From: Patescibacteria group bacterium | Lineage (GTDB): Bacteria > Patescibacteriota > Patescibacteriia > Magasanikbacterales > GWA2-37-8 | Length of the DNA stretch: 64,000 bases | Direction of reading: 5' to 3' | Assembly (NCBI GenBank): GCA_004321885.1 | Contig: SCQK01000007.1 | Span: 32,001 to 96,000 of the forward strand | Position numbers and translations under genes: made by a program | Shown here: positions 8,518-48,254 of the stretch, one piece after another | Layout: each line of letters starts with the position of its first letter | Numbering within the stretch: the first letter of the stretch is position 1 | Notes under the pieces: model-generated | Told to the model about the DNA's origin: nothing | What the model saw: the letters and a program-made list of their open reading frames with translations, nothing else | The model's database searches: none

Positions 8518-9285
8518 TCATGTTTCTCCCTATGTCGCCATAAGGCACGGACTATATCATCACCCGTTTTGAGAGAATTTTTTGCTTAGCCGGATGCCAT
8601 GAGCCGATAACTCGGATAAAATCTTGGAGCGAATTCGCTCTCACGAATATGCGCCAATAATCCGGGTCAACTCGCTTGCTGGGATTGTGAACTTTCCCGC
8701 AAACGATGCTCATTTTTTTCAACATCTGTTTAAGCTTGCATATCTTGGCTTTATCCTTTTGCACCAATTGTATATACAGCCGCGCTGTAATGTGGTGCGG
8801 AACGCCGCCTTCGGCGTCAAAGAATCCTCGAATATACGCTTTTTGTTCTTCGCGACTTTTTAGCCGCAATGGATCAAAACGGAAATCCAGAAATGACGCT
8901 AATGTTTCAAGAACATGGACATCTCTGTCTTTTCCTTCGCGATACATCCAAGACGAATAGCCAATCTTTTTTAGAAGTCGCTTTAGCGTTTTTAGCCAAC
9001 CGGTTCCCTTTTGTGAAAAACGGAATCTGCGGTTACTGCTAAATGTGCCGTCGTGCAATGCTCCTAAAAGATATGCTTTTATTTCTCCCCTTAACGGGGT
9101 TCGGCGTGTAGTCTCTGAGGGGTCAATCCCGACTAAGTCGGGACGACTTCCCTGCTGATTGACTGCACCGAAAACTTTTTCACTCATACTGCTATAGTGT
9201 AGCACAAGTAGTTTCGGATACACAGTGTTTCCAGCAAACAGCCGAATTTGTTTTTAGCGATTACTCGCTAAGAGTCGCAATTTGT
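8518..9285 (-). mobile_element. Insertion 1 in the 16S gene (near the 3' end, between CCTTGTT and ACGACTT). It carries a LAGLIDADG homing-endonuclease ORF and is probably a self-splicing intron.
   Basis: The exon sequence is interrupted and resumes at about 9285. The ORF 8552-9223 lies inside. Confidence 0.7.
8552..9223 (-). CDS. LAGLIDADG homing endonuclease, intron-encoded.
   Basis: Motifs YLLGALHDGTF and IRGFFDAEGG. An in-frame palindrome (SRPDLVGID) lies near the N-terminus. Confidence 0.75.
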   Translation of the reverse strand: MYPKLLVLHYSSMSEKVFGAVNQQGSRPDLVGIDPSETTRRTPLRGEIKAYLLGALHDGTFSSNRRFRFSQKGTGWLKTLKRLLKKIGYSSWMYREGKDRDVHVLETLASFLDFRFDPLRLKSREEQKAYIRGFFDAEGGVPHHITARLYIQLVQKDKAKICKLKQMLKKMSIVCGKVHNPSKRVDPDYWRIFVRANSLQDFIRVIGSWHPAKQKILSKRVMI

Positions 9286-10118: not shown

Positions 10119-10163
<45 letters not shown>

Positions 10164-10290: not shown

Positions 10291-11320
10291 TACCAGGGTC
10301 ATTTCACTTTACATTTCTGTAAAGATTGGACTATATCATTTTCTGTAAGCTTTCCACTTGCTTTTCTTGAGATTGACATACTCTCGTATTTTTTCCAAAG
10401 AAAAGCCCGTGTTTTTCGCTATTTCAGAAATCCAGCGTTCTTGAAGTTGAACATCGTTATACATCAGAATCACTTTGGGCAAAACTTCTTCAACCTTCGT
10501 ATAAGGCAGAATAATGCGAAGAAGTTTTTTTAGTTCCTCGGTGGAACGCAACCAAATTCTGAAGTATTTTTCTTTTTTTCCATTAACCTTTGTAATGGAT
10601 GCCACTCTGACCTTGATTTTCCAGACTGTTTGAAGATATTTGGCTAAAACTTGCACGGCTTTTTCATCAAAGCCATCGGTGCAGATGACGCCTTTTCTAC
10701 CATTTGAAATGATAGAACCGTCGTCAAACCACCAGATTGCCAGTGATAATGGGCTCATGAAATTTAACCACTTTCTTCGTATTTCCAATCTGTTGTTTTT
10801 ACAGGTCAGATTGTGCATTTCCGTCAATGCTTCCAGGGCCTTGCTTTGATAACGAAGTTTTGCTTGTTTGCTAAACCCGTTATCTTGTTCTTGAAGCCAG
10901 ACCGACTTATCCGAGGATATCTCGGACAGCTGCCTGACCTTCCAGTCAAAGTAGGCTTTCTGAATGACGGAGTGCCTGAAAGAAAATCTGGCGTTTTTGT
11001 ATGGCCGATGGATTTTTAACGACCCGTCGCCCAACAAAGAGCCGAGGATTATTTCTTTCACGCCATTTGACAAAGGCACATTAGAATAATTATTCATAAT
11101 TTATGAATGATAATTAAATGCGCCAACTATCTTTCATCAACTTCATAGTCTCTACGGGGTCGAACCGCATTTGGCGGACGACTTCCCTCGGGATTGTCCA
11201 AACTGATGGTAGTATTTTTTTGTTTGGAGTTTCCCCGATATAGCTGAATGCTCATCTCAACATTGCTGTTGAGAGGGACACCGTTTATGCCGACTTGTTC
11301 CGCCTTAGGCGAACAAGCGA
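10291..11320 (-). mobile_element. Insertion 3 in the 16S gene (around position 790-800), with a LAGLIDADG ORF.
   Basis: The exon breaks after GGACTACCAGGGT and resumes at ATCTAATCCTGTTCGCTCCCCACGC, 11322 onward. Confidence 0.7.
10336..11097 (-). CDS. LAGLIDADG homing endonuclease, intron-encoded.
   Basis: Motifs ILGSLLGDGSL and LAIWWFDDGS. Confidence 0.75.
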   Translation of the reverse strand: MNNYSNVPLSNGVKEIILGSLLGDGSLKIHRPYKNARFSFRHSVIQKAYFDWKVRQLSEISSDKSVWLQEQDNGFSKQAKLRYQSKALEALTEMHNLTCKNNRLEIRRKWLNFMSPLSLAIWWFDDGSIISNGRKGVICTDGFDEKAVQVLAKYLQTVWKIKVRVASITKVNGKKEKYFRIWLRSTEELKKLLRIILPYTKVEEVLPKVILMYNDVQLQERWISEIAKNTGFSLEKIREYVNLKKSKWKAYRK

Positions 11321-14962: not shown

Positions 14963-15016
14963 GACGGAATTTGAGAGCGTGACTATCTTATTACAAAGCC
15001 GCTTGTTTGTCAACTT

Positions 15017-15062
15017 ACCCCTCCCTTACCCTCCCCTTATCAAGGGGAGGGGGCGGGAGGGG
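15017..15062. repeat. GGGGAGGG-family palindromic element overlapping the 3' end of smc.
   Basis: cccctcccttaccctccccttatcaaggggagggggcgggagggg. It supplies the terminal codons ..DTPPAPSP of SMC. Confidence 0.7.
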
Positions 15063-18000
15063 TATCGTATTGCTCGGCTTCTTCCATTTTCACGCTAAGC
15101 AGTTTGGAAACGCCGTCGCTGCCCATCACCACGCCGTAAAGCGCGTCGGCCGCGTGCATGGTCACGCGGTTGTGAGTGATGATAATAAACTGCGACTGCG
15201 ACGACAGTTCAGCCATAATCTGCGCGAAACGGCGAGTGTTGGTTTCGTCCAAAGCCGCCTCCACTTCGTCCAGTACCACAAATGGCGCCGGATTGAAATT
15301 GAGCACCGCGCAAATGAGGGCGATGGAGGCCAGGGTGCGTTCGCCGCCCGACAAAGCGTTGATATTGCGGATTTTTTTACCAGGTGGATTAATCGTGATA
15401 TCTATACCAGTAAGAACTTTTTTCACGCTGGATTCCTGCTCCCTGTTCGGAGCCAGGGACAAGTTTCGCGGGAATGACAATGTTGGGTCGGACTCAACTT
15501 GCCCTACTTCAACTACGTCTGCATTATTTTCTTCCTCGCCATACACTTCTTTCATATCAGCGCTGCCTCCTCCGAACAAGAGCTTCACGTAACGCTCAAA
15601 TTCTTTTCTTATTTTCTTAAACGCGGCGGCGCGTTTCTTTTTCATGATGTCGTCCAGTTCCTCTATCATTTTTTCCAAATCTTCAATAGCCGCGCGCAAA
15701 TCAGTAATCTGGCCGTCCAAAAAGTCAAACTTTTCCTTGGTGTCGGCGTGCTCTTTCACCACTTCCTCATCTATGCCGCCTATCAAACTTAATTGGTATT
15801 TTAATTTTTGTATCTCGGCCAGCGCCTCACCCATTTTTTCCGGCTCAATCTCTGGCGGACGGCGCTCAATCAACGCCTCCACCGACGCGTTCATTTCGGC
15901 GCGCGCCTCGGCAACAATGGCATCCTGGCGCGTGTCCAGTTTGGCCTGTTCTATTTTCAAATCATTACGGGTTGTCAAAATACCGTTAAGGGTATTCTGC
16001 TTTTTTTGCATTTCTTCCTGCAAAGAAAAGACGCGTTGTTTTTTCTCTTCTTCGCTCGCGTTAAATTTAGAAATTTTTTCCGCCAATTTGTCTATCTCAT
16101 CCTGTTTGGCGCTGATTTGCTTATCCAAAGCGGATTTTTCCAGAGACAATCCGGAAACAATCTCGCCATATTCTTTCGGGTCGGCTTCTTGCAGGGCCAA
16201 TTCTTGTTCCAAGCCCGCGATTTCCGCCTCCGCGGCGTTGGTTTCCGCGGCCAAAAGAGCGGCGCGGCCGTCGGCCGCGTCTTTTTTTGTCTGCGATTTG
16301 AGCGCCTCGGCCCGTTCGCTTTCTAGCCGCGTTTCCAGCTCAACCATTTTTTCTTTGGCCATTTTTATTTCCAATTGATATTCCGCGAATCTGTCCGGCC
16401 CCATGTAAAACTTGCGCGAAAAACCCAGCCCGGCCCTTTTCTGCTGGCGCCAGCCGCCCTTCATCACGCCGCTTTTTTCCACCAAATCGCCATCCAAAGT
16501 CGCCATACGCGCCCGGCCCACGCCCACGTGGTTGGCCGTTGCCAAATCATTCACAATAATGGTCTGTCCGAAAACAAAAGAAAAAATTTCGGCGAATTTC
16601 GCTTCGTATCTCACCAATTCGCTGGCCAGTCCCAAAACGCCGGCTTCTCGCAAAATCTTATCATCCGGCGGCGCTTCCCTGCCGGATATTTTTGTCAAAG
16701 GCAAAAAAGTGGCCACGCCCAGCCGGTTGGCGCGCAAAAATTCTATGGCCTGGCGCGCGGTCTCTTCGTCTTCCACTACAATGGCCGAGAGATACGAACC
16801 CGCGGCCACCTCCAAAGCCGGACGGTATTTTTCCTCGGCGCCGCCCAATTCAGAAATTAGCCCGTACACCTTGCCGAATTTATTTTTATTTTCCAAAACC
16901 GCCTGCACAGCCAAGAGGCCGGTGAACTGCCGGTAGTGTTTTTCCGACTGGTCGTCCAGCGCTTGTTTTTCCAGCCGCGTCACTTCCATCTGGGTATCCG
17001 CGCGCTCTTGCGCCAGCGCGTCCAGTTGTTTTTGTTTTTGCAAAAGCGCCCGCAGGGCCGCGGCCGACTCGCCGCGAATGGCGGCCAAGTCCTTGGTCAA
17101 AAAATCTTTTTTCAATTTCAGTTCGGCCAGCTTGTTCCGCAACCAACCCACGTTCTGCTTGCCAGCCAGGTTGTATTGCGCCTGCATCTGGCCTTCCTTG
17201 ATGGCGCGCTGGCGCTCCAAATCATTTTTTTCTTTGAGAACCATTTCGTAGCCGGATTGCAATTCGCCAAAAACTTCCTGACGTGATTTGGTGTGCGCCA
17301 AAGACGCCAGTTCGGTTTGCGCTGTTTCCAATTCACCAAAAGCCCGGCGGTATTCGCTTTCAACCCCGACCAACGAAGCGGCCAGCCGGTCAAGTTCTTT
17401 TTTATTCGCCAGATAAGCCGAGCTGTAATACCGTTCCTGCCACTCGCGCAAAGAGCGCTCCACTTCCTGCCTCTTCTCCAGTTTCTTCACCTGTCTGGAC
17501 AAAATTTTCAAGCGCGGCTCCACCTCTTGCATCAAGCGCCCGGCCTGTTCTATGTTCTCGCGCGTGCGCGCCAATTTAAGTTCGGCCTGGTGCTGTTTGA
17601 TTTGAAATTCTTTTATGCCCGAGGCTTCGTCCAAAAAATCCTTGCGCTCGGCCGGCCCCACGGTAAGCAAGCGGTCTATCATCCCCTGGCCGATGATGCT
17701 GTAAGAATGCTGGGCGAACTGGGCTTTGGCCAAAAGCAAATGCACGTCCAGCAAGCGCGCGGGGCGGTTGTTTATCAGATACTCGCCCTCGCCCGAACGA
17801 AACATCCGGCGCGTGATGGCGATTTCCGGATACTCGGACAATACTTTGCCGTCGCTGTTATCCAAAACCATGGTAACCTCGGCCGCGGATAACTGGCCTT
17901 TGGCTTCCGAACCGCCGAAAATTATGTCTTCATTTTTTTTGCCGCGCAAATTTTTCAAACTCTGTTCGCCCATCACCCAGCGCAAGGCGTCGGAGACATT

Positions 18001-18660: not shown

Positions 18661-18671
18661 ACAATCGTTCA

Positions 18672-18712
18672 AAAGACAGCCACAAGCAACTGTGGCTGTC
18701 TTTTATTAACTA
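18672..18712 (+). terminator. Rho-independent terminator.
   Basis: gacagccacaagcaactgtggctgtc stem followed by ttttatt. Confidence 0.6.
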
Positions 18713-18770
18713 AATCACCCTTGACATCCCGCGCCAAGCGTAATATAATGAAAAATTCTGATTGACTTTA

Positions 18771-18804
18771 CCCCCTCTTAATCTCCCCCTTATCAAGGGG
18801 GAGA
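18771..18804. repeat. GGGGAGGG-family palindromic element (intergenic, upstream of the DHH gene).
   Basis: ccccctcttaatctcccccttatcaagggggag. Confidence 0.6.
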
Positions 18805-19807: not shown

Positions 19808-19868
19808 TAAAAATCTGCTAAACTAAACTAACGGATTCCCCCGACTAAGTCGGGAGAATGACAATTAT

Positions 19869-23207: not shown

Positions 23208-24107
23208 TTATTTTTGGCAGTTTCCACAAAAACTCGTTCCCCGGCCCGCAATTTTCCTTTTTTGAATTATACCCTTTTTGCACCGCAGGCACTTCATGCC
23301 CTGGCGGCCGTAGACTTTAAGAAACTCGGTAAACTTGCCTTTTTGCCCGCGCGCGTTCGCGTAATTCCTGAATGTCGTGCCACCGTATTTAAGGGCCTGG
23401 CGCAAAACCGATTTTATCGCCCTAAACAGCGCGGCCTTTTCTTTTTCCGTCAAACTCGCCGCCGGCCTTCCTGGCAAAACACCGGCGCTAAAACATATCT
23501 CATCGGCGTAAATGTTTCCGATGCCGGCGATAAGCGCCTGGTCCAAAAGCGCGGCTTTGAGCAGGGATTTTTCCCGGCCGGCCAGAATCCTCTTAAATTC
23601 CGCTAAATTAAACTTTTTTGAAAACGGCTCAATTCCGTAGGCGCGCTCAACTTTATTTTTCTCGGCTTCACCCGCCAAGCGCAAATAGCCGAAACGTCTC
23701 ATGTCATTAAAATACAACTTGGAGTCGTCGGAAAACACAAACGCGGCGCGCGTGTAAGCCGTTGGCAAAGTGTCCGGATTAATTACCGGCAAATTATGCC
23801 CGCCCCCACACCAAAATTTTTGGTGTGGGGGCCCGCCGGCTACTACTTTCTTCCCTGCCGCGTAGATTAGCTGTCCAGTCATTTTCAAGTGAACCAGCAA
23901 ATATTTTTTGGCCGACAGGCTAAATACCAACAGCTTTCCCAGCCGCTCTATTCTTACAAATTTTTTCCCTTTAATTTCAGAAACAAACTTTTCCGCATTT
24001 CCTTTTACCGGACTTTTTTTTGCAATCTCAATCTGCACGATTTTCTTGTTCAAAATACTCTTTTCCAGACCCTTGCGTATTGTTTCCACTTCGGGCAGTT
24101 CGGGCAT
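23208..24107 (-). CDS. mutM: Formamidopyrimidine-DNA glycosylase. It contains an in-frame palindromic insertion (..GGPPHQKFWCGGGHN..).
   Basis: MPELPEVETIRKGL N-terminus, C-terminal zinc finger CxxC..CxxC. The element cccgcccccacaccaaaatttttggtgtgggggcccgcc at 23796-23832 lies inside the CDS. Confidence 0.8.
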   Translation of the reverse strand: MPELPEVETIRKGLEKSILNKKIVQIEIAKKSPVKGNAEKFVSEIKGKKFVRIERLGKLLVFSLSAKKYLLVHLKMTGQLIYAAGKKVVAGGPPHQKFWCGGGHNLPVINPDTLPTAYTRAAFVFSDDSKLYFNDMRRFGYLRLAGEAEKNKVERAYGIEPFSKKFNLAEFKRILAGREKSLLKAALLDQALIAGIGNIYADEICFSAGVLPGRPAASLTEKEKAALFRAIKSVLRQALKYGGTTFRNYANARGQKGKFTEFLKVYGRQGMKCLRCKKGIIQKRKIAGRGTSFCGNCQK

Positions 24108-24229
24108 ATTTTTTCTGACTATAAGTTTGGCGAGCAAACTCATGTATTCCCGATAACTATATAATATCAAATATTGTTTCTGCCGTAAAGAAAAACTGGT
24201 CGCCTGCGGCGACCAGTTTTTCTTTTAGT

Positions 24230-35754: not shown

Positions 35755-36231
35755 ATGACATTTCGTCGTCGCATCGGTATCGTCTTCGTCTGCATCCTGC
35801 TCGGGTTCGTTGTTCTGTTCGTGGCAGGACCCGGTTTCATGGTGGTCGACAACAGGGACATCCGAGCCGCCGATGATGTCTCAGCGGAGGACATGGCCGC
35901 TTGGCTGGGAGATGCTGGCTGGCAGGCGGATGCTACAAAACATTACTATCTCATCAACGTATCGGGAGTTGTGCATTCTCTCTCGCCGCGATCGCTCAAA
36001 TACCTCGAGGCGCGCATCACAAATACCAAGGCGAATCTGCGCGTGTACGCCGTCACACCGTTATTGGGTTTTGTCGTTGAACCGTTTCGACTCGGAACGG
36101 TGAGCCTCCTGTTTCTGATAGAGACACCGGAAGAGCGAGACCTAGCGGACATCATGCGGCAGTTCAGCTTCTGTGTACGTCAAAGTGATCAGAGCGGGCT
36201 ATGTATGCCCGTGTTGTCGGGGACACGTTGA
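35755..36231 (+). CDS. Membrane hypothetical protein within the island.
   Basis: N-terminal TM IGIVFVCILLGFVVLFVAG. Confidence 0.35.
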   Translation: MTFRRRIGIVFVCILLGFVVLFVAGPGFMVVDNRDIRAADDVSAEDMAAWLGDAGWQADATKHYYLINVSGVVHSLSPRSLKYLEARITNTKANLRVYAVTPLLGFVVEPFRLGTVSLLFLIETPEERDLADIMRQFSFCVRQSDQSGLCMPVLSGTR

Positions 36232-37672
36232 ACTGGCCGGCTTCGGAGCGGAGCGACTGATCATACCCCGGCGCCAACGTGATCTGCGGCGATCCGGTGC
36301 TGAGCTCCACCTTGGCGACCACCGCCTCGATCACTGAGCGCCGTGTCACCGGGTCGTCGCTGGCCAGCTTGGCGTTCATGGATTCCACCACCTCAAGCAT
36401 GGTGGCTCCTCGCTCGTCATCCAACAGGTTCTCCGGTCTGTTCACCAAGAACCACTCGGTTGCCCGGATCTGCTGGAGGACTGCGCCGCGCTCCTGATCG
36501 TACTGGCTGTCGTCGACCAGGCCCCTGGCGTACTGACGAGCCAGATCCTTCAGCTTCTCGTCGAGCTCGCGCCGTTGCTGCCTGAGCAGGCGAATCCGCT
36601 CGCCCTGCTCCTTGCTTCTGGTCCGGCGTGCCTGGCGCTCCGCCCGGCGCAGGACAGGGACCATGGTGGCAGGCAAGTCCATTGCCAGCAGGTTGGCGCA
36701 GATCTCATTGTCAAGGTCGGCCGCTCGGGTGCAGAAGCTACAACCCTGCTGGTGGCAACGGTAGTAGTCGTGGATTCTGCCAGACTTCTTGATGTGTCGC
36801 TCGCCGGTCAGCGTCGCGGCGCACCTCGGGCATCTGACCTTGCCGGCCAGGACGAAGACCAGATGCTTCCGGCCGCCTCGCACACTGCCTCCGGCTTTTT
36901 GCCGAAAGACCTCCTGGCACCGGTCGAAGAGCTCTTTGGAAACCAAAGGTGGATGACTGCCCGGGTAGCTCCTGCCCCTGCTCATCATCACGCCGATGTA
37001 GAACGGATTCTTGAGCAGCCGGCACCATTGGTTAACCGGTACTTTCTTGCCGTGGACACCCACCAGGCCGCTGCTGTAGATCGTGTCCGCCAGCTGGCTG
37101 GCTGTCAGCTTTCCCGTAGCCCACAGTTCAAACGCTTCTCTCACCCTCGTTGCCCTCGCCGGATCCAGCACCACACGATCATTTTGCATCAAATAGCCCA
37201 GACAAGGGCGGCCGAACCATTTGCCCCGAAGAAGGCGCTCTTCGAGGCCCTTGCGAACCTCGGCCGAGAGGTTCGCGCTGTAGAACTCTGCTTGTGCTGC
37301 CATAATGTTTTCCAGAAACTCACCCATAGGGGTCGCTTCAAAGGATTCCACCACCGAAAACAGCTTTACTCCATATTCCTTGAGCTGGCCCTTCAAGATG
37401 AGATGATTAAAGACGTTGCGGGACAGCCGGTCGATCTTGTGGACGACGAGGCCACTGATGGACTTGTCCCGTTTGACGTGGCCGATGGCGGCCATGAGCC
37501 CCGGACGCCCGCGCAACTGCCTGCCCGAGCTGACGTCCTGGTACCTGGCGGCCACGATCAAACCACGTTCCTCGGCGTATCGCTGCATCAGCCGAAACTG
37601 AGCCGCGATGGAAAGCTCGCGTTCCGCCTGCCGAGTGGTGGAGACGCGAGCGTACAAAATGACTGCTGACAT
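36164..37672 (-). CDS. Large serine recombinase (resolvase catalytic domain, then a recombinase domain, a zinc ribbon and a coiled coil).
   Basis: N-terminal ILYARVSTTRQ catalytic-serine motif, DRLSRN, and a Cys cluster CPRC..C..C. It is 502 aa. Confidence 0.85.
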   Translation of the reverse strand: MSAVILYARVSTTRQAERELSIAAQFRLMQRYAEERGLIVAARYQDVSSGRQLRGRPGLMAAIGHVKRDKSISGLVVHKIDRLSRNVFNHLILKGQLKEYGVKLFSVVESFEATPMGEFLENIMAAQAEFYSANLSAEVRKGLEERLLRGKWFGRPCLGYLMQNDRVVLDPARATRVREAFELWATGKLTASQLADTIYSSGLVGVHGKKVPVNQWCRLLKNPFYIGVMMSRGRSYPGSHPPLVSKELFDRCQEVFRQKAGGSVRGGRKHLVFVLAGKVRCPRCAATLTGERHIKKSGRIHDYYRCHQQGCSFCTRAADLDNEICANLLAMDLPATMVPVLRRAERQARRTRSKEQGERIRLLRQQRRELDEKLKDLARQYARGLVDDSQYDQERGAVLQQIRATEWFLVNRPENLLDDERGATMLEVVESMNAKLASDDPVTRRSVIEAVVAKVELSTGSPQITLAPGYDQSLRSEAGQFNVSPTTRAYIARSDHFDVHRS

Positions 37673-39464: not shown

Positions 39465-40262
39465 CTAACCCCTGGCCAAAGTGAGCCAGTAAATTTTTTG
39501 CGCGCCGGCCGCTTTCAGCACGCGCGCGCATTCCTGCATGGTGGCGCCGGTGGTGTAGACATCATCAACCAGCAGAACGTATGCGGGCGCCGGAGCCGGT
39601 CCCTTCCACGCGAACGCGCCGGCCACGTTTTGCGTCCTTTCCTCTTTGCTTAACCTGGCTTGATGAGGAGTGTAGCGGGTGCGAACTAATACCCCCTCCT
39701 CTATCCTCCCCCTAATAGGGGGAGGGTTCTGTGTGAGTCCCTCCCCTTTTAGAGCCTGCCCTGAACTTGTTTCAGGGGGAGGGATACAGGGAGGGGTATT
39801 CAAAGAGTCCAAAAAAATTTTTGCCAACACTTTCGCCTGGTTAAAGCCGCGCTCGCGTTCGCGGCGCGGGTGCAGGGGAACTGGAAGAACTGACCAGCAT
39901 ATTGGCTCCACAGCCCCGACTAAGTCGGGGACTATGGAGCCAGCCACGCTAATTATCGTTCCGACCGAGCAGAGCGAACGGAGGAACCCCTTTTTCTCAC
40001 TTATTATTTTTTCAAAAACATTTTTAATGTCTTTGGCAAAGCCGTATTTGAATTGTTTTATCAGCCTGCCCACGGGCCCGTTTTCTTCATAAACAAAAAA
40101 AGACGCACCTCGGTCCAGGTGCGCGTCCGCGGGCCAAAGCGCGCACTCATTTTGGTGTTTGGCCCGGCAAAGCTTGCACCACCACTCCCCTTCCACGCCG
40201 CAATCCACGCACGAGACCGGGAAAAGAATATCTTTGAACCAGCGCGCGGAGGCGGCCAGCAT
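39465..40262 (-). CDS. comF: ComF-family protein (double zinc ribbon plus phosphoribosyltransferase domain), with two in-frame palindromic-element insertions.
   Basis: N-terminal CVDCG..C..C and C-terminal PRTase motif VLLVDDVYTTGATM. The elements at 39700-39805 and 39904-39944 are translated. Confidence 0.75.
   Translation of the reverse strand: MLAASARWFKDILFPVSCVDCGVEGEWWCKLCRAKHQNECALWPADAHLDRGASFFVYEENGPVGRLIKQFKYGFAKDIKNVFEKIISEKKGFLRSLCSVGTIISVAGSIVPDLVGAVEPICWSVLPVPLHPRRERERGFNQAKVLAKIFLDSLNTPPCIPPPETSSGQALKGEGLTQNPPPIRGRIEEGVLVRTRYTPHQARLSKEERTQNVAGAFAWKGPAPAPAYVLLVDDVYTTGATMQECARVLKAAGAQKIYWLTLARG
39904..39944. repeat. Copy of the 43 bp CCCCGACTAAGTCGGGG element inside comF.
   Basis: Identical to 20823-20864. 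Confidence 0.8.
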
Positions 40263-40875: not shown

Positions 40876-42747
40876 TCACTGATTTTCTTTTTCAAATTCT
40901 TTTTTGGCCGCTTCAATGTCCAGCAACTGCTGGGGATTGGTGGTCACAATCTGGTCTTCGGTGTAGGAGGCCACCACTTTAATGGCCGCGTGCTTGTTGC
41001 CGGCGAAAAAAATCCCCTCACCCACAGCGCTTTCCAAAAGCAGATATTTTTCGCCCTCGGTTAAAATAAACACTTTTTGCACCAAATCAATGGCCGCCGG
41101 CGACTGACGCAACAAAAGTTGCAGGGCCGAGTTCGTCACAATCGCCTGACCGTATTGCGAGCGCAAAAAATCATTCACATCCTGCGTGATGGTGGTAACG
41201 CCCAAAAAATATTTGCGGCAGCGCTTGACCAGGGCGAAAATAAAGCGAGCGCTGTCCTCGTGCTGCATCAGCCACCAGGCCTCGTCTATGGCCAGAATCC
41301 TTTTCTTGCGCTCCGAACGCACAACGTTCCAAATATAGTTGACGATGGCGTAAATGGCCAGGGGGCGCAACTCGTCTTCCAAATCGCGCACCGAAAAAAC
41401 CACCAGCTGATTTTTCACGTCCACGTTGGTGGGCGAATTAAACAGACCGCTAAACGTGCCCTCGGTAAATTTTTTCAATTTCAAGACCAGCTCGTTTGAC
41501 CCTTCCATGCCCTCCAAAATTTCCTCCAAATCCTGCATAATGGGCGGCGTCACCTTGGTCAAATCCGCGTCCGGCGTGATATCTTTTTTGGCGTAAGTTT
41601 CTATGAGCGCGCGGTCAATGATGGAATCCTGCTCGGTGGTAAGCCCGCCCAGCATGATGCGCAACAGCCCCTTCACGGTAATGACCGCCCCGCGGATAAT
41701 ATCATCCACGGAAATTTCCTGACCCACGGGCCGCGGCAAATCAAAGGGGTTCACCTTGCTTTCCGAAGATAAAGAAATATTTATATAGGTGCCGCCCACG
41801 GCATCGCACAAATGCTTGTATTCCATTTCCGGGTCAATCACGATAATGTCCGTGCCCATCATCATGGTGCGCAAAATTTCCAGCTTGATGGCATAACTCT
41901 TGCCGGCGCCGGAAGTGGCGAACACCACCATATTGGCGTTTTGCAAAGAAAAGCGGTCAAACAAAATCAGGCTATTGTTGTGTCGGTTGATGCCGTACAA
42001 GATACCGTCATCCGAGGTGAGCTCGGCGGAAATAAACGGAAAACTGGCCGCGATGGGGCTGGAGTTCATGTTGAAAGCGACCGCGATTTCATCGTTGCAT
42101 AAGGGCAGGGTGGAATTAAAACCCTGCTCGGACTGATAAAAAACCTTGCGCGAATAAATGAGCTTGCCGCCAAAAACATTTTCAATGTCTTCGCAGGTCT
42201 GGTCCAGCTCTTCTTTGGTTTTGGCGTAAACCGTAACATAAAACGCAAACTGAAAAAAATGCTCGGTGCCCTGGGTGAGATTGTCGCGCAGTTCTTCTAT
42301 GTCGCGCAGGGCGGTTTCGCGAATCGGGTCGCGCGGCGCGCCTTTTTCCGCGTCGGCGTTTATCTGCGCTTCCAGGGCGCCGACTTTATTGCGCAACTGC
42401 TTCAAAATTATAGCTGACTTGACCGGATAAAAAAACATGCCGATGTCCATGGTCACGGACATATTAAGAATGGGCGAACTCCAGCCCACCGAAATATAGC
42501 GCGGATAGGTGATGACAAAAATGGTGCGGCAAAAAATATCGCCCAGCTTCACGAAGCCGGTCTCCACGTTGAAAGCCGAGGGCGCGATGATGTCCTTAAT
42601 GGAAACCGTGCCCTCGCGATAAGCCCGCTCTTCGGCCAAAATCATGGTCTCGGCCGCGGCTTTCTTTTTTACCGCCTCTTCTTCTTTGCGCAGGCGGCTC
42701 TCGTCGGGCTGGCCGGTTGGTTTTACGATTTTTGGTGCAAAAGCCAT
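40876..42747 (-). CDS. virB4: VirB4/TrbE-family type IV secretion ATPase.
   Basis: Walker A VVFATSGAGKSY, with DUF87-like architecture. Confidence 0.75.
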   Translation of the reverse strand: MAFAPKIVKPTGQPDESRLRKEEEAVKKKAAAETMILAEERAYREGTVSIKDIIAPSAFNVETGFVKLGDIFCRTIFVITYPRYISVGWSSPILNMSVTMDIGMFFYPVKSAIILKQLRNKVGALEAQINADAEKGAPRDPIRETALRDIEELRDNLTQGTEHFFQFAFYVTVYAKTKEELDQTCEDIENVFGGKLIYSRKVFYQSEQGFNSTLPLCNDEIAVAFNMNSSPIAASFPFISAELTSDDGILYGINRHNNSLILFDRFSLQNANMVVFATSGAGKSYAIKLEILRTMMMGTDIIVIDPEMEYKHLCDAVGGTYINISLSSESKVNPFDLPRPVGQEISVDDIIRGAVITVKGLLRIMLGGLTTEQDSIIDRALIETYAKKDITPDADLTKVTPPIMQDLEEILEGMEGSNELVLKLKKFTEGTFSGLFNSPTNVDVKNQLVVFSVRDLEDELRPLAIYAIVNYIWNVVRSERKKRILAIDEAWWLMQHEDSARFIFALVKRCRKYFLGVTTITQDVNDFLRSQYGQAIVTNSALQLLLRQSPAAIDLVQKVFILTEGEKYLLLESAVGEGIFFAGNKHAAIKVVASYTEDQIVTTNPQQLLDIEAAKKEFEKENQ

Positions 42748-42752
42748 AGGTA

Positions 42753-43433
42753 TTATTCTACCTGCATCTGATTCGCCGGCGCCAGGTATTGGCTAAACGC
42801 CACGTCCGGATTATACGTTGAATAAAATAATTCTATCAGGGATTGCGTGTCCAGGCGCGCCACTTCCAGGTTCATTGAAGCCAAACCCCCTTCCACCTGG
42901 CGCACGCGCGCGTCTAAATCTTTTTTTCTCTGCAAAAACCGGTCTTCTTTGAGAGTGATGATAGTAGCCGGATTAATCGTCTCCATCGCGCGCGGCCAAA
43001 AGCCGCGTTTTTTGTTAGAAAGCGGGTCGTAGGGCACAATCACGAAAAACTGTTTGCTCATGATTTTGCCGAGCGACACCAGCTCGGTGATAAACGAGCG
43101 GTAATCGGCCGTCTGCGCGCGTAAAAGCTCGTTGCTTTGCTCGCGCTCTTTGGTTAGTAATTTTTCCAGATAGGGCTTGATATATAACTGACGCGATTGC
43201 ACCACCACCTGCAGGGGAAAATCCAGGGAGTTCAAAAAAGAAACATACGACGACACCAGCGCGTTTTGCTCTTCCTCGCTTTTGAGCGCGAAATTAACGC
43301 TGGAAACCATCAGCAGGGCGCGCAGGGTGCCGTCTTTCATGACAACAGTGTCTGATTTGATTTCAGAAAAAGGCAGATGATTCTGCGCGGACGGAATAGC
43401 TCTTTTTTTGGCCAGCGTTTTTTTATTTTGCAT
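42753..43433 (-). CDS. Hypothetical protein immediately upstream of VirB4 (possibly a split VirB4 N-terminal domain or a T4SS accessory protein).
   Basis: A 226 aa ORF tightly coupled to virB4. Confidence 0.4.
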   Translation of the reverse strand: MQNKKTLAKKRAIPSAQNHLPFSEIKSDTVVMKDGTLRALLMVSSVNFALKSEEEQNALVSSYVSFLNSLDFPLQVVVQSRQLYIKPYLEKLLTKEREQSNELLRAQTADYRSFITELVSLGKIMSKQFFVIVPYDPLSNKKRGFWPRAMETINPATIITLKEDRFLQRKKDLDARVRQVEGGLASMNLEVARLDTQSLIELFYSTYNPDVAFSQYLAPANQMQVE

Positions 43434-43441
43434 ATGTTTTT

Positions 43442-43476
43442 CCCTCCCCTTGCGAAGGGGAGGGTTAGGGAGGGGT
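43442..43476. repeat. GGGGAGGG-family palindromic element (intergenic).
   Basis: ccctccccttgcgaaggggagggttagggagggg. Confidence 0.6.
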
Positions 43477-43477
43477 C

Positions 43478-43906
43478 TTACTCGGGTTTGTAATATCCCC
43501 CGGTATTCACAATCAAAGACAAATCCCTGATTCTGTTATACGACAATCGCGGCATGGCCTTGGCCGCTTCTTCTATTTTTTTCTCCGCGTTCGCTTCGCG
43601 CAATTTTTTCAAATCGGCGTTGGAATATTTTTTCTGCCAGATGCGCAGGCTGGGCCGGCGCGCGGTGCCGGCGATATTTAGGATAAAATAATGAAACGGC
43701 TGGCCGTTGATTTTGACAAAAGCGAAGGTCAGCGACAAGCCGCCGAAAAGCGCGGTGAGGAAAATAAACAAAGCCATGTCGGCCAATTTGAAAGACAAAA
43801 ATATCAACAGACTGCCTGCGAGCAAAATGATAAACTGCCTGGTGGTGATGGGCCCAAAAATTTTGTCTTCCACGTCTATGAATTGCGGCACCGTGAATTG
43901 ATCCAT
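43478..43906 (-). CDS. PrgI/VirB3-like small membrane protein of conjugative type IV secretion systems.
   Basis: MDQFTVPQFIDVEDKIFGPITTRQFIILLAG followed by two TM helices resembles PrgI-family proteins. Confidence 0.55.
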   Translation of the reverse strand: MDQFTVPQFIDVEDKIFGPITTRQFIILLAGSLLIFLSFKLADMALFIFLTALFGGLSLTFAFVKINGQPFHYFILNIAGTARRPSLRIWQKKYSNADLKKLREANAEKKIEEAAKAMPRLSYNRIRDLSLIVNTGGYYKPE

Positions 43907-43907
43907 A

Positions 43908-45038
43908 CTATAATTCTTTCTCCATCGCCACTATCGCTTTTATTTCTTCTATCTTTATCCCGCCTTTTTCCGTCGCTGTCTGCGCCAGGGTTTTTCTGTC
44001 GGCCAACGCGCCGCACACCGCGTCCATGTATTCCAAATAAAGAGGGCTCTGTTTCCAGGCGGCCTGCGCGTCCATATATAATAGGTAGGATTCGTCGCGC
44101 AGGTTGATGAATTTTTGTTTCAGGCGCTGGCCCGCCTCGGCGCAGTTTTGCGCCAAACGGCGAAAATCCGTCAGACTAATATATTTTACCTCATCTATGG
44201 GTCCCATTTCAACAGGCGGAGCGGAAATATCCCGCATGCTCTGTTTTACCGGCGCGCTTCCTAACTTGAACGACGAGGATTGTGTAGCCCCCTCCCCTCT
44301 TAGGGAAACCGTCATCTTCCCCTCCCCTTGATAAGGGGAGGGCTCGCCACCACACCAAAATTTTTGGTGTGGTGGCGAGGGAGGGGCAGTCGCAACCGGC
44401 TTCTCTTCAGGCGCCAAAAGCGCGTGCAAAAGCTCGTTGGCTTTTTTCTTGCTCTCGGGCACAGTTGGTCCCCCCCCTCCTTTAGAAGGAGGGGGCAAGG
44501 GGGTGGTCTTGACCTTTTCTGAATGTTCAAACGGGTTAAACGGAGTTGCTGTCGCCGGCAACAATACCTCTTCGCACGCTCCCGCCGCTTTCTCGGCCTG
44601 ATTGGCCGTAAAACCCATGCCACCGTCTTTTATGGAACGCAATAAAATATTTTTCGTTTCTTCGGGCGAGCGCACGTCTTTGAGGCGCAACTGAATAATA
44701 CTGCGCAAGCGATTGATAAAGTTGGGCGGCACTGGAAAATTTATTTTTTTGAGCGCCTGGTCCACCTGGCTTAGGCGCGGCTCGCTCAATTTCGGCGCGT
44801 CGCCCTTGGCCGGCGCCGGCTCTTCCAAAGGCGACCGAAAATCATTATTCGCTTTCTTCGTTCCCATCATCGGCGCCGTGGGATACGGCGGTCGTTTTGG
44901 CGCTACTTTCACTCCCTCCCCTTTTAGGGGAGGGGCAGGGAGTGGGGTATTGTGCGCCGCTTGTCTTACCTGCGACAAAGGCATGCGCACAAAACTGCCG
45001 TCGGCCTTTTTTACCAAAATTGTTGGTTCGTTTGGCAT
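43908..45038 (-). CDS. Proline-rich hypothetical protein carrying at least four in-frame palindromic-element insertions.
   Basis: Translated elements: PLPAPPLKGEGVKV, PLPPPSKGGGGPT and SPPHQKFWCGGEPSPYQGEG. The ORF extends to 45101 through a further element. Confidence 0.45.
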   Translation of the reverse strand: MPNEPTILVKKADGSFVRMPLSQVRQAAHNTPLPAPPLKGEGVKVAPKRPPYPTAPMMGTKKANNDFRSPLEEPAPAKGDAPKLSEPRLSQVDQALKKINFPVPPNFINRLRSIIQLRLKDVRSPEETKNILLRSIKDGGMGFTANQAEKAAGACEEVLLPATATPFNPFEHSEKVKTTPLPPPSKGGGGPTVPESKKKANELLHALLAPEEKPVATAPPSPPHQKFWCGGEPSPYQGEGKMTVSLRGEGATQSSSFKLGSAPVKQSMRDISAPPVEMGPIDEVKYISLTDFRRLAQNCAEAGQRLKQKFINLRDESYLLYMDAQAAWKQSPLYLEYMDAVCGALADRKTLAQTATEKGGIKIEEIKAIVAMEKEL

Positions 45039-45093
45039 ATTATTTACCCCTGCCTCCCTCCCCCTTAAATAAAGGGGGGGACAGGAGGGGGTA

Positions 45094-46425
45094 TTATTCA
45101 CTAACTAATTTTAAGTCTTTCGCCACCTGCGCGGCCAAGGATTCCACGCTGTCAAATTTTTTGGGCAGGCGCAAATAACGTTCGGTGCGCGCTTCTATTT
45201 TTTTTCCATACAAATCGCCCGCAAAATTCAAAACATGAACTTCCAGGCAGTCTTTTTTTGTTAAAGAATTATATCCATAATATAGCAAGCCGGAATACCC
45301 CTTCCCCTGCCCCTCCCCTAAAAGGGGAGGGTGGCTATCGGTGGTTCCTCCCCTTTTTAGGGGGAGGACAAAGGAGGGGGTATTCGCAATGAAAGCGACG
45401 GAGCACGTATACAATCCCCTGGGCAAATTTTTGGCCAGCGCCACGTCCAAGTTGGCCGTGTGAATCCCTACTTTATCCCCTTGTCCATAGCCGGGCAAAA
45501 CCGCGCCGGCCACCACGCGCGAACGGTGTAAAAACACAATTCTGGTTACGGCCGCCGCCAGCGCCGCCGCTCCCAAAATTTGCGTGGCCGATAACGCGTT
45601 GCCATTTAAATAATAATCCAAAATAATGGCGGACACGGGCCAGGACAGCTCGCACAAAGTCGCCACCGAAGCGGTGATTTTTTTCAGGCCGAAATAGTAC
45701 AAAAACATGGCCGCGGCTCCGGATGTAAAAACTATAATGATTAAAGTCGTCCACTGGGCCGCGCCCACCGACGGCAGAGAGGAAAAATAGCGCGCCGCCG
45801 GAATCGCCATAATCAAAACCGTGAGCCCAAAGCGCAAAGCCGCCAGCAGGCCATAGCTGATATTTTTTAGGGAATATTTTCCAAAGGTGGTGGCCGAACC
45901 CCAGGCAAACGCGGCCAGCATGGAAAAACCGGCGGCAATGGGAACAGCCGACATCGCGCTAGAAACCGCGAACGGATTTTTGAAAGTAACAAAATATCCC
46001 GCGACCAGCGCGAGCGGGGCGTAAAAATAAAACGAGCGCGGAAATCGCTCGCGTAAAAATATGGCGGCCAAGATAATCGCGAAAATCGGCTGAAATTTTT
46101 GCAAAAGAATCACTACGGAAATATCTTTGAAGCCCGTGGCAAACAAGGCCTTGGTGATAAAAATCGTGCCCAAAGCCCCGCCAAACAAGGCCACCCAAAA
46201 AATTGCGACCCACTCTTTGCGTTTTATCAGTTTTAACTGGGCGCGGTAAACAACCAAAAACGGCAACAAGGCGACAAAACCGAGCAGGTGCTCCAAAAAC
46301 ACCAGCAAGGCCGGTTGCAAGGAATACAAACGGGGTCGCAAAAAAGTGCCGTCCAAACTCCACAGCAGAGCGGCCAGCGCCACGGCCATTGCCCCGATAA
46401 TCACGCTATTTTTTTTCATAATCAT
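45094..46425 (-). CDS. Putative fusion of an EamA/DMT-family 10-TM transporter with a C-terminal riboflavin kinase domain. The kinase domain carries an in-frame palindromic insertion.
   Basis: About 300 aa of paired EamA-like TM repeats, then GQGDKVGIHTANL...GLYTCSV..EVHVLNFAGDLYGKKIEARTERYLR (RFK motifs). The element at 45298-45385 encodes ..TTDSHPPLLGEGQGKGYSGL... Confidence 0.55.
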   Translation of the reverse strand: MIMKKNSVIIGAMAVALAALLWSLDGTFLRPRLYSLQPALLVFLEHLLGFVALLPFLVVYRAQLKLIKRKEWVAIFWVALFGGALGTIFITKALFATGFKDISVVILLQKFQPIFAIILAAIFLRERFPRSFYFYAPLALVAGYFVTFKNPFAVSSAMSAVPIAAGFSMLAAFAWGSATTFGKYSLKNISYGLLAALRFGLTVLIMAIPAARYFSSLPSVGAAQWTTLIIIVFTSGAAAMFLYYFGLKKITASVATLCELSWPVSAIILDYYLNGNALSATQILGAAALAAAVTRIVFLHRSRVVAGAVLPGYGQGDKVGIHTANLDVALAKNLPRGLYTCSVAFIANTPSFVLPLKRGGTTDSHPPLLGEGQGKGYSGLLYYGYNSLTKKDCLEVHVLNFAGDLYGKKIEARTERYLRLPKKFDSVESLAAQVAKDLKLVSE

Positions 46426-46481: not shown

Positions 46482-46593
46482 CCCCACTGTCATTCCGAGC
46501 GGAGCGAGGAATCCCTTATACTACGTTAACAGTTTCTATATCCCCCTTCTTCAAATGCAACACAATCGCCAGCGCCTCGCACAGCCACGAGGC
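46482..46593. repeat. 112 bp direct repeat (copy 1). It includes a MITE-like hairpin and a duplicated 3' gene tail.
   Basis: About 90 percent identical to 47237-47348. On the minus strand it encodes ..EALAIVLHLKKGDIETVNVV with a stop, as a remnant. Confidence 0.75.
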
Positions 46594-46723
46594 GCGTTGT
46601 CTCACACATTAATAATGATTGTGAATAAAAACTGTGGACAAAACGCCTTGACAAAAAACTCTTTTCTTGATATATTAGATTCGGATAGTAACGATGAAAA
46701 GACCCTCGTAAGAAGATACGTGC

Positions 46724-47218
46724 TTACGGGGTGCTTTTTTTATACTCAACTTTATTCCTCAAATCACTAACAAAACTAATTTTGCCGCCGGCCACTTTCC
46801 GCAATAAGTACGAGCAACTGGACGGCGCGGGCGCGATCAAGTGGCAAAACTTATTTTGTTTTCGCAAATAGTCAACTAAACAATGAAAATCACCATCGCC
46901 GCTGACAATTACGGCCTGATCATAATTCTGATATTCTATCATCGTGTGTAAAACCAATTCGGCGTCACAATTCCCTTTTACTTCACCGTCTTTCAATATT
47001 AGAGTTGGTTTAAATATCAAAATGTAACCAACCTCCTGAAGAAATTTATACAACTCCTCATTGCCAAATAAAAAACCAATGAACATAAACGCCTTCGCGA
47101 CGCTATATTTGTCTTTCAAATACCTGCGAAAACGAAAATAATCCAGCTTCCAACCAATGCGCTGCATACTGAAATATAGATTCTGACTGTCTATAAACGC
47201 GAAATTGTTTTCTTTCAT
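46724..47218 (-). CDS. NYN-domain (PIN-like, LabA-type) protein.
   Basis: AFIDSQNLY, DAELVLHTM and VIVSGDGDFHCLV motifs. Confidence 0.65.
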   Translation of the reverse strand: MKENNFAFIDSQNLYFSMQRIGWKLDYFRFRRYLKDKYSVAKAFMFIGFLFGNEELYKFLQEVGYILIFKPTLILKDGEVKGNCDAELVLHTMIEYQNYDQAVIVSGDGDFHCLVDYLRKQNKFCHLIAPAPSSCSYLLRKVAGGKISFVSDLRNKVEYKKSTP

Positions 47219-47236
47219 ACTTCGTTTCCCTCCCCG

Positions 47237-47348
47237 CCCCACTGTCATTCTGAGCGGAGCGAGGAATCCCTTACACTACGTTAACAGTTTCTATATCCCC
47301 TTTTTTCAAATGCAACACTATCGCCAGCGCCTCGCGCAGCCAAGAGGC
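47237..47348. repeat. 112 bp direct repeat (copy 2), overlapping the authentic 3' end of the gene 47271-48254.
   Basis: See copy 1. Confidence 0.75.
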
Positions 47349-48254
47349 ATAAGCCTCGCGCTCCTCTTGTCCGCGATAAATATTCTGCAAGAATTTTTCC
47401 GCCTCCAAAATTGCCGTGTCCTGATTGTAGCCACGGCCGGAAAAATCTTTGAGCAAAACCGATAATTTTCTGCTTTCATCTCCGGCATCGCTCGTCGGCA
47501 CGCTCTCGTTGCTTTGCTCCAACGATTGTATGATGTTCCGGCTCATGGCGTCAAAATCCGCGTCGCTCTTGCCGCCCAAAAATTCCCCCAGATAAAATCG
47601 CGCCGGCACGCCGGTCACGATGGCGCTATAAAAATAATTCTGCAATAAAAATTGTCTTTCATTCGCGCCAAACTGGCCAAACATCTTCCACACCGCCTGC
47701 AAGAGCATGGAAAAAATAAAAGCGTCATCCCAAAAATATTGTTTTTTAATATCTTCTGATTTCGAAACAGCGGGTAGTGTGCGCACAAACATTTCGCCGA
47801 TTTCTTTATCCGCGCCATTTCGCAAAAAATCCCCGAGCGTCGCCACAAAAACCAAATCATTATAAAATCCGCCTTCGCCTTTCAAAATAATTTTCAATTC
47901 TTCTTTTTCGTATGGCTTGACGCCAGCGCCCAAACCCAGAGCCGCTGAAATAAACGATAGCTGTAGCGCCAATGCGCCGGCGATTTCGCTATCGTCTGGC
48001 TTATCCATAAATTCGGCGACCAATTCGGAATCCAAAAACAAAATTATTTCTTTTTCAATCACGTCCATTGCTCCGGATAACTCTTCCTTAGTCGCTCGCG
48101 CGCCAATTTGCGAAGCGTAATCAAACATTTTCTCGTTTGCGCCCTTGGCAATCAAATCCGCTTTGGCTTTTTCCAATTCCAAAAACGCCTCGCGAACATC
48201 CTGCCACGAACACCTTCTAAACTCGCATACTTTGCGCCTGCCGAGGGTGAACAT
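47271..48254 (-). CDS. Hypothetical protein.
   Basis: A 327 aa ORF with no recognisable domain. Confidence 0.45.
   Translation of the reverse strand: MFTLGRRKVCEFRRCSWQDVREAFLELEKAKADLIAKGANEKMFDYASQIGARATKEELSGAMDVIEKEIILFLDSELVAEFMDKPDDSEIAGALALQLSFISAALGLGAGVKPYEKEELKIILKGEGGFYNDLVFVATLGDFLRNGADKEIGEMFVRTLPAVSKSEDIKKQYFWDDAFIFSMLLQAVWKMFGQFGANERQFLLQNYFYSAIVTGVPARFYLGEFLGGKSDADFDAMSRNIIQSLEQSNESVPTSDAGDESRKLSVLLKDFSGRGYNQDTAILEAEKFLQNIYRGQEEREAYASWLREALAIVLHLKKGDIETVNVV

Follow-up and report, generated by a model that had tools for sequence, protein, structure and literature searches.

Here we describe very short palindromic repeats in and around a gene of a type IV secretion system (T4SS)-like cluster in a Patescibacteria group bacterium (contig SCQK01000007.1; the 64,000-nucleotide stretch analysed is called the window, and all positions are its own). 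The open reading frame (ORF) at 43908–45101 on the minus strand is a genuine conserved protein-coding gene of this cluster, and we consider it probable that dispersed, tiny palindromic repeats were inserted into it in frame and have been kept in its disordered linkers. The original prediction had been confined to this ORF. Going beyond it, we found that the elements, which we call types A and B, occur genome-wide and in other genomes and are not specific to the ORF.

The host gene and its linkers

The ORF as listed and the gene as we revise it are as follows:

43908..45101, minus strand: studied ORF as listed, starting at GTG 45101
43908..45038, minus strand: gene as revised, 376 amino acids from ATG 45038; conserved hypothetical protein of a Patescibacteria T4SS-like cluster

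Among 5.8 billion protein clusters searched, 199 full-length homologues of the ORF product were found. The top homologues had E values of 4e-66 to 1e-60, coverage of 98–100% and lengths of 300–420 amino acids, and all those bearing names belonged to Patescibacteria or Magasanikbacteria; exact-protein look-ups of both start variants gave 0 matches. In the alignments, the N termini of all homologues coincide with ATG 45038 (MPNEPTILVKK). Because the homologues all begin at that position, this ATG is most likely the true start, and the 21-codon extension up to GTG 45101 is unlikely to be a real N terminus. The start at ATG 45038 places one palindromic element (45045–45093) in the leader, outside the protein, and the coding sequence therefore holds three element sites (four to five hairpins), not four. 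For annotation, this means a real gene with its start set at ATG 45038.

Codon usage was scored, with element codons masked, against a model for which 12 well-identified genes of the window served as the training set. Outside the repeats the ORF scored +0.34 bits per codon in frame, and the other five frames gave values such as −0.58 and −0.13, and at most 0.11 bits per codon. The best score was in frame in all four non-element segments; the element codons themselves scored −0.2 to −0.4. We also compared orthologous T4SS loci, as the original prediction had proposed along with the codon-usage test, and found the same gene order in the window and two other genomes (loci L248 and L249): a TrbL-like gene, two unknown genes, the studied gene, PrgI, a TraC-like gene, a VirB4-like ATPase, a 200-amino-acid protein and a ComF-like gene. 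In all three the studied gene lies directly upstream of the PrgI-like, TraC-like and VirB4-like genes, and the two orthologous genes are without a type A or type B palindrome. The ORF product matched no family in Pfam, NCBIfam or PHROG, the cluster genes of unknown type gave nothing in NCBIfam and PHROGs, and the structural model of the product had no Foldseek match in the PDB with E < 1; across these resources (Pfam, NCBIfam, PHROG and Foldseek PDB), similarity to any named T4SS protein was found neither by sequence nor by fold.

The original prediction had entertained the view that the region is no gene but a repeat-filled non-coding spacer, in which the stop-free arms of the elements create the open frame, and had tied this view to a lack of both homologues and coding periodicity outside the repeats. 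The elements are indeed stop-free by composition, and the missing family and fold matches would fit a non-gene. However, homologues and periodicity are both present: three conserved blocks run in one frame through the 199 homologues, the gene order is kept, the domains are confidently modelled and the in-frame codon bias recurs in each of the four segments. The homologues, their alignment and the codon bias refute this reading, to which we assign essentially no probability.

The alignments define conserved blocks at amino acids 1–29, about 85–160 (NRLRSIIQLRLKD...KDGGLGLT) and 270–376, with a short PFNxF motif near 171–176, after the central block; the segments between blocks vary in length and sequence and are often proline-rich. 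AlphaFold2 (AF2), given a 93-sequence alignment, returned a mean predicted local distance difference test score (pLDDT) of 75.7, with 79–89 for amino acids 1–29, 96–98 for 85–160 and 275–376, and 45–62 for 31–80 and 161–270. As modelled, the protein has three folded domains, helical or small, with long disordered linkers between them. The intragenic element sites (amino acids 30–45, 177–191 and 217–251) all lie within the low-confidence, non-conserved segments, and about 66 of the 376 residues are element-derived. The longest peptide (217–251) sits in alignment columns that are gapped in nearly all of 24 aligned homologues. The earlier suggestion of a tolerant, linker-rich protein that accumulates insertions is borne out by this arrangement of three folded, conserved blocks with every intragenic site in a variable segment.

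Palindromic elements across the window

In type A, a hairpin, CCCTCCCCTT-nnn-AAGGGGAGGG, is joined to one or two outer arms that terminate in TACCCC/GGGGTA; the element measures 37–49 nt, or more where nested. Type B is a 29-nt palindrome on CCACACCAAAA-W-TTTTGGTGTGG (the CACACCAAAA/TTTTGGTGTG palindrome). Half-sites read CCCCACACCAAAA ... TTTTGGTGTGGGG, or TACCCCNCCC ... GGGNGGGGTA. With three mismatches at most, the window has six occurrences of the type A core CCCTCCCCTTnnnAAGGGGAGGG (0.00 in 100 shuffles); with one at most, it has 15 of the outer arm GGGAGGGGTA (1.98 expected). The window holds 11 element sites, seven overlapping coding sequence and four intergenic (18770, 27025, 43441 and 45045), and the elements fold as RNA with −19 to −69 kcal/mol. 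Those in and beside the studied gene are:

44904..44951, minus strand: type A, hairpin CTCCCTCCCC-TTTTA-GGGGAGGG plus G-rich outer arm GCAGGGAGTGGGGTA; also written CTCCCTCCCCTTTTAGGGGAGGG plus GCAGGGAGTGGGGTA
44466..44510, minus strand: diverged type A, CCCCCTCCTT-TAG-AAGGAGGGGG plus CAAGGGGGTGG, that is, CCCCCTCCTTTAGAAGGAGGGGG plus a G-rich tail
44286..44390, minus strand: 105-nt (35-codon) composite coding for amino acids 217–251, TAPPSPPHQKFWCGGEPSPYQGEGKMTVSLRGEGA; its parts are a decayed hairpin (44290–44310), a type A hairpin CCCCTCCCCTTGATAAGGGGAGGG (44319–44342), a type B element (44343–44379) and the outer arm GGAGGGGCA
44343..44379: the type B palindrome of this composite, perfect over 37 nt (18+1+18, 100% complementary), CTCGCCACCACACCAAAA-T-TTTTGGTGTGGTGGCGAG = CTCGCCACCACACCAAAATTTTTGGTGTGGTGGCGAG
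45045..45093: complete two-armed type A, 49 nt, TACCCC...GGGGTA, TACCCCTGCCTCCCTCCCCCTTAAATAAAGGGGGGGACAGGAGGGGGTA; fold −30.5 kcal/mol
43441..43477: type A, hairpin plus TTAGGGAGGGGTC, in the PrgI/TraC-like spacer; match E 2e-12 to a hidden Markov model (HMM) of type A

All four palindromic sites that the original prediction had located in the ORF exist, and the peptides it quoted are correct for the minus-strand frame. Its statement that all four are translated in one frame holds for the three intragenic sites but not for 45045–45093, which the homologue N termini place upstream of ATG 45038. The site at 44904–44951 codes for amino acids 30–45, NTPLPAPPLKGEGVKV, in linker 1 (pLDDT 54–58); it matches an HMM built only from copies in other genomes with E 1.5e-5, and its RNA folds with −24.3 kcal/mol (z −4.9). 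The diverged site at 44466–44510 codes for amino acids 177–191, KTTPLPPPSKGGGGP, just past the PFNxF motif (pLDDT 53), with a weak HMM match (E 0.62) and a fold of −23 kcal/mol (z −1.9). In the composite (pLDDT 45–50), the type A hairpin matches the HMM with E 3.5e-8, the RNA folds with −68.9 kcal/mol (z −8.0), and the type B palindrome separates the hairpin from the outer arm of the type A element in which it is nested; this palindrome shares its core with the type B copy at 23802–23832 in Fpg. The leader element at 45045–45093 fills the 55-nt spacer between the stop codon of an EamA–riboflavin kinase gene (45094–45096) and ATG 45038 and is, from its position, probably untranslated. The PrgI/TraC-like spacer is 44 nt long with its element in the window, versus 1 nt in L248. 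In form, the G-rich tail GGGGAGGG-TTA-GGGTGGGG agrees with a G-quadruplex motif; we make no claim about this.

The remaining sites of the window lie in or beside unrelated genes:

45296..45382, minus strand: 87-nt (29-codon) two-hairpin type A composite, in frame in the riboflavin kinase domain of the EamA–Flavokinase fusion, amino acids 348–377; fold −57.4 kcal/mol, z −5.6
39691..39798, minus strand: 108-nt type A composite plus a further nested palindrome, in frame in a ComF-like phosphoribosyltransferase
23802..23832, minus strand: type B, in frame in Fpg/MutM, peptide GGPPHQKFWCGGGH, direct repeat CCCG...CCCG
15016..15064, minus strand: complete 49-nt type A overlapping the 3′ end of SMC, giving its last residues (TPPAPSP) and stop codon
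27025..27063: type A, intergenic, just past the stop codon of AdoHcy hydrolase; HMM E 1.6e-13, the best fit to the consensus of other genomes
18770..18804: type A variant, intergenic, TACCCCCTCTTAA plus TCTCCCCCTTATCAAGGGGGAGA, 13 nt upstream of the start of a DHH-family gene

In alignments, the ComF-like composite is a clean 29-residue insertion relative to two orthologues. The loop that holds the Fpg copy exceeds that of MutM 1l1t by 26 residues, and the catalytic N terminus and the zinc finger are intact. The ComF-like protein (39465–40262, minus strand) has, in addition, a second insertion of about 25 residues, VGTIISVAGSIVPDLVGAVEPICW, at amino acids ~105–130, which is absent in both orthologues. 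Peptides that mark element junctions include PLKGEGVK, PHQKFWCGGEPSPYQGEGK and, in PNPase of another genome, GKVNPHTKIFGVGVNMIEAGAQ.

Sequences of this kind raise the question of artefacts from the assembly of a metagenome-assembled genome (MAG), such as chimeras. A 2-kb Logan contig (SRR8426592), reached through the PrgI neighbour, terminates at the centre of the type B palindrome at 44343–44379, and such repeats therefore disturb assemblers. Up to that break, however, this separate assembly is an exact substring of the window (42325–44362), two type A elements included, although its reads are possibly shared with the window's source. The frames of five well-known protein families also run undisrupted through elements, and complete isolate genomes, among them those of Nostoc sp. 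C117 and Nostoc linckia NIES-25, contain copies. We give the artefact explanation hardly any credence.

Copies in other genomes

The type B core was found in at least 120 metagenome stretches, many of them from groundwater and sediment, and 53 of 122 copies lie in open stretches of at least 150 amino acids. Ten type B host ORFs were tested; they include PNPase, the Der GTPase, two Mur ligases, DNA methyltransferases, an AAA ATPase and a Wzy-type protein. The hosts are unrelated housekeeping genes. We aligned 94 distinct copies in register and permuted the partners 5000 times. The palindrome proper spans 29 nt (YCC-CCACACCAAAA-W-TTTTGGTGTGG-GGR), and the 4-mers flanking it are directly identical in 42 of the 94 copies, compared with 11.4 ± 2.8 (maximum 22) after permutation; inverted identity of the flanks is at chance (10 versus 12.3). 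The direct-repeat signal is confined to one diagonal, whose offset is exactly 33 nt, with flanks such as TTTA/TTTA, TAAA/TAAA, TCAA/TCAA, CAGG/CAGG and, in the Fpg copy of the window, CCCG/CCCG. We read this direct repeat as a putative 4-bp target duplication, in which case one insertion of the 29-nt element would add 33 bp, or 11 codons. Consistent with this, alignment of a type B-bearing PNPase with 5yjj and of a Der GTPase with 4dcs opened a gap of exactly 11 residues opposite the type B peptide.

The left arm of type B is composed of C and A alone and the right arm of G and T alone, and all six frames are therefore stop-free. The peptides observed in the six frames are PHQKFWCG, PHQNFWCG, PHTKIFGVG, PHTKNFGVG, PTPKFLVW and PTPKILVW. 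Two orthologous methyltransferase-like genes on metagenome contigs (L206 and L196) carry type B at the same position with the central base flipped (PHTKIFGVG versus SHTKNFGVG), from which it follows that the centre is altered or inverted once the palindrome has been inserted.

In GTDB species genomes, stretches that carry the exact type A core number at least 120 and come from several phyla. Among the matches listed, the hosts are mostly filamentous cyanobacteria, with Cellvibrio, Alphaproteobacteria, Bacteroidota, Turneriella, Chthonomonadaceae, Nitrospinota and Patescibacteria besides; six viral contigs also carry the core, as do complete isolate genomes such as those of the two Nostoc strains named above. 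Copies in other genomes share the outer arm (consensus CCCTCCCCTTnnnAAGGGGAGGG-TTA-GGGTGGGGTAA), and an HMM from 118 of them recovers the window copies with E values of 1.6e-13 to about 1e-5 and finds no further sites. In these other genomes most type A copies are intergenic: open stretches of 150 amino acids or more contain 24 of 134 copies, versus 78% of random positions. Some do occur in linkers or termini of real proteins, among them an RluA-like protein and a MacB-type transporter, in which alignment left the size of the insertion ambiguous. The arms pair C/T-only with G/A-only sequence, and stop codons are possible only in the loops. The 130 ORFs that flank type A copies in other genomes fall into 204 Pfam families without enrichment of any, transposases included. 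The junction between hairpin and outer arm holds extra DNA both in Nostoc (a 21-nt segment in loci L002, L065, L081 and L115) and in the window (the type B element at 44343–44379), and may be a preferred site of nested insertion.

These comparisons bear on whether the palindromes could have arisen in place, by slippage or template switching in linker DNA rich in proline and glycine codons. The linkers of the homologues are proline-rich (CCN-rich), and two homologues (P0006 and P0008) bear a different short palindrome (PLSRGEG) in the same linker, which would fit such an origin. Yet identical 23-nt cores stand at unrelated loci of the window, intergenic ones included, and in other phyla; the HMM built from other-genome copies alone recovers those of the window; and the direct repeat of type B keeps its fixed 33-nt offset. 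We therefore regard an origin in place as very unlikely.

Another alternative is that the palindromes act in cis as regulatory structures that have been selected locally in the T4SS-like operon, serving as hairpins for mRNA processing or stability, as pause sites or to sequester Shine–Dalgarno sequences. The sites are clustered: three fall within the 1.13 kb of the ORF (Poisson P ~0.001) and six of 11 in 43.4–45.4 kb (P ~3e-6), both values being post hoc and computed with 12 sites, so that the final count of 11 makes them slightly smaller. The hairpins are very stable, and two of them supply Shine–Dalgarno-like sequence. At 43434–43477, the 3′ arm of type A places GGAGGG 8 nt (GGAGG 8–9 nt) upstream of ATG 43433; in the 3′ arm of 45045–45093, an AGGGG run ends 9 nt upstream of ATG 45038, with GGAGG about 16 nt upstream. 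Both arms would pair in the hairpin, which makes translational control a possibility. The C-rich arm is in the sense strand in all six one-sided type A copies of the window, and type A in other genomes favours convergent over divergent spacers by 21 to 5. On the other side, the orthologous operons are without the elements, and identical element types occur in unrelated genes and spacers. Orientation relative to transcription shows no bias in other genomes (15 sense versus 13 antisense), and we therefore do not build on the six of six in the window. A terminator scan called no type A or B element; no T-run comes after any of them, and the majority are located inside ORFs or operons. Rfam gave the elements no match at gathering score in the window or at 12 element-bearing loci, with weak generic hairpin hits only. 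We think a regulatory role unlikely and retain it as a minor rival because of the Shine–Dalgarno-like arms and the strong local clustering.

A proposed explanation, the surrounding locus and known systems

The explanation we favour, in-frame insertion of dispersed repeats into a real gene, would work as follows. Families of ultra-small, non-autonomous palindromic repeats, type A as well as type B, would spread through the genome by insertion, presumably mobilised by an enzyme, and each type B insertion would leave its 4-bp target duplication and lengthen the sequence by 33 bp, or 11 codons. The arms, of two bases each (C/T versus G/A in type A, C/A versus G/T in type B), can hold no stop codon in any frame on either strand; a coding insertion would thus give an in-frame peptide rich in proline, glycine and leucine, not a null allele. 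Such inserts would be translated and selectively neutral, and selection would retain copies in surface loops, termini, disordered linkers and short spacers. The ORF would carry three insertion sites, one of them nested, because it offered about 160 residues of linker.

Several observations weigh against this explanation. A Y1/RAYT (REP-associated tyrosine) or DDE transposase was found neither among the 38 window ORFs scanned, where the only recombination or endonuclease genes met were those for a large serine recombinase and LAGLIDADG endonucleases, nor, by bulk Pfam scan for RAYTs and transposases, among the 130 ORFs adjoining type A copies in other genomes. No diagonal that would mark a target duplication was found for type A. 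The type B copy in the ORF measures 37 nt and has GGAGGG on either side, in place of the canonical 29 nt plus 4 bp, and two of the four type B host proteins tested (the Mur ligases MurD and MurC) lack a clean 11-residue gap, their alignments being ambiguous. The nearest homologue of the ORF product is 50% identical (MAFFT alignment), and no same-species pair of empty and filled sites was available for the ORF copies. With six of the 11 sites within 2 kb, simple tolerance is an incomplete explanation, and hairpins of −23 to −69 kcal/mol inside the mRNA of the ORF would have to be tolerated.

Full-text literature searches with the element sequences, with the peptides and with the candidate phyla radiation (CPR) plus palindromic repeats found no description of the elements; Elhai et al. 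2008 (Genome Res 18:1484) lay outside their coverage. More tentatively, and as a proposal about which we are rather doubtful, types A and B might form an undescribed cross-phylum class of transposable palindromes of 29–49 nt that are suited to coding DNA, colonise essential genes (PNPase, Der, Mur ligases and Fpg) of gene-dense CPR genomes, which are short of intergenic DNA, and serve as a recurrent source of linker and loop sequence, with type B as the smallest known bacterial element that bears a transposition signature. If this were true, part of the odd protein architecture of CPR bacteria, whose small, gene-dense genomes hold many unexplained protein insertions, would be accounted for, and annotators would gain a simple rule to recognise and mask such inserts. 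The fragmentation of MAGs would be partly explained by hairpins that break assemblies, and the lower size limit known for mobile DNA would drop. A concrete prediction, for strain polymorphism and for an enzyme search, is the fixed 33-bp increment with its 4-bp duplication.

Other features of the window concern the surroundings of the locus. Between the 327-amino-acid cluster gene and the studied ORF lies the segment 45094–47248, with the EamA–riboflavin kinase fusion gene and an NYN gene; since the 327-amino-acid gene and the studied gene are adjacent in L248 and L249, the T4SS-like cluster appears to have received this segment by insertion. Two copies of a direct repeat of about 105 nt (46487–46595 and 47241–47345) flank the NYN-domain gene (46724..47248); the repeat contains GTCATTC[CT]GAGCGGAGCGAGGAATCC and the 3′ end of the gene at 47271..48254. 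In L249, the PrgI/TraC spacer is filled by a palindrome of the related TCATTCTGAGG...CCTCAGGATGA type. A third palindrome family, ATTCCCCCGACT-nA-GTCGGGGGAAT, occurs near the 5′ end of a riboflavin synthase ORF (642–666), inside an NAD(P)H-hydrate dehydratase ORF (2851–2869) and between the DHH and ClpP genes (19838–19856). The A/T-flanked perfect hairpins at 18671–18704, 20778–20809 and 24187–24225 (for example, AAAGAAAAACTGGTCGCCTGCGGCGACCAGTTTTTCTTT) appear to be common bidirectional intrinsic terminators with no relation to types A and B. A 16S rRNA match at 9238–12098 (minus strand) covers 2861 nt versus a 1533-nt model and has large insertions, one of which holds a LAGLIDADG_2 ORF (10336..11097); a group I intron match (8528–9297, minus strand), which contains a LAGLIDADG_3 ORF (8552..9223), lies just downstream of the 3′ end of the 16S. 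A large serine recombinase (36164–37672, minus strand; Resolvase, Recombinase and zinc ribbon) and a HEPN-domain gene (55886–56592, plus strand), overlapped by a small ORF downstream, may point to integrated mobile DNA and a toxin–antitoxin pair in the window.

Among known systems, repetitive extragenic palindromic (REP) sequences and their REPIN forms are G+C-rich imperfect palindromes of 20–40 nt, highly repeated, often arranged in doublets or mosaics, and non-autonomous, being mobilised by RAYTs (PMC3116915; PMC3733652). They are extragenic by definition, carry a GTAG or CGTC tag and are enriched at 3′ ends and between convergent genes (PMC3116915; PMC3733652). The elements described here are likewise short, G+C-rich, highly repeated palindromes. 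In contrast to REPs, seven of the 11 window sites are coding, the ends read TACCCC or CCC (in full, TACCCC/GGGGTA for type A and YCC/GGR for type B), type B has flanking direct repeats and no RAYT was seen among the ORFs scanned; a GTAG or CGTC end tag is not a conserved feature, GTAG following the arm in only a few type A or B copies. To our knowledge, HUH/Y1 transposition yields no such direct repeats.

[quoted passage not shown] Here the whole element is palindromic and so has inverted termini, and a target duplication would be present for type B, the Fpg copy included, but not for type A and not in canonical form in the ORF copy. The 29-nt unit, however, is far below the MITE size range and is without a known parent IS.

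For mobile repeats of such small size, the nearest forerunners are the small dispersed repeats (SDRs) of Nostoc, termed 'very small mobile repeated elements' (Elhai et al. 2008, as cited in PMC4390886 and PMC3116915). SDRs are reportedly 21–27 nt long, dispersed and in some cases palindromic, and are said to be inserted precisely into conserved sequences and into each other. Since Nostoc and other filamentous cyanobacteria carry many type A copies, type A may overlap an SDR family, the comparison being by description only. By description, too, SDRs are set apart in that they are described in cyanobacteria; we know of no report of SDRs across phyla, in frame in CPR genes or with an 11-codon quantum. 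Mobile G+C clusters and double-hairpin elements of fungal mitochondria are also short G+C-rich palindromes that spread in a compact genome and lie inside protein-coding genes, where they are either bypassed or translated in frame; these belong to another domain of life and have other sequences, and no relation is implied.

In mode of working, the elements appear closest to the Rickettsia palindromic elements (RPEs), and in-frame palindromic repeats as such are an already known kind. RPEs are about 100–150 bp long, encode 30–50 residues and are confined to Rickettsia (PMC10969869). They too are dispersed palindromes found in frame in unrelated genes, housekeeping genes included, where the peptide is tolerated, and also in intergenic DNA (PMC10969869). 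In the same way, the palindromes described here recur at several unrelated loci (11 sites in 64 kb), and in-frame copies occupy positions at which homologues lack the segment (the ComF-like protein, Fpg, the composite of the ORF, PNPase and Der). They fall short of RPEs proper, with their 100–150 bp and conserved peptide of 30–50 residues: at 29–49 nt, or about 11–16 residues per unit, they are three to five times smaller, and only nested composites reach 87–108 nt. They also occur in Patescibacteria and several other phyla in the same sequence form, often nested, and their likeness to RPEs is one of description. Finally, unlike RPEs, type B has a 4-bp direct repeat and a fixed 11-codon increment, and there is a moderate chance that this signature marks something undescribed so far.

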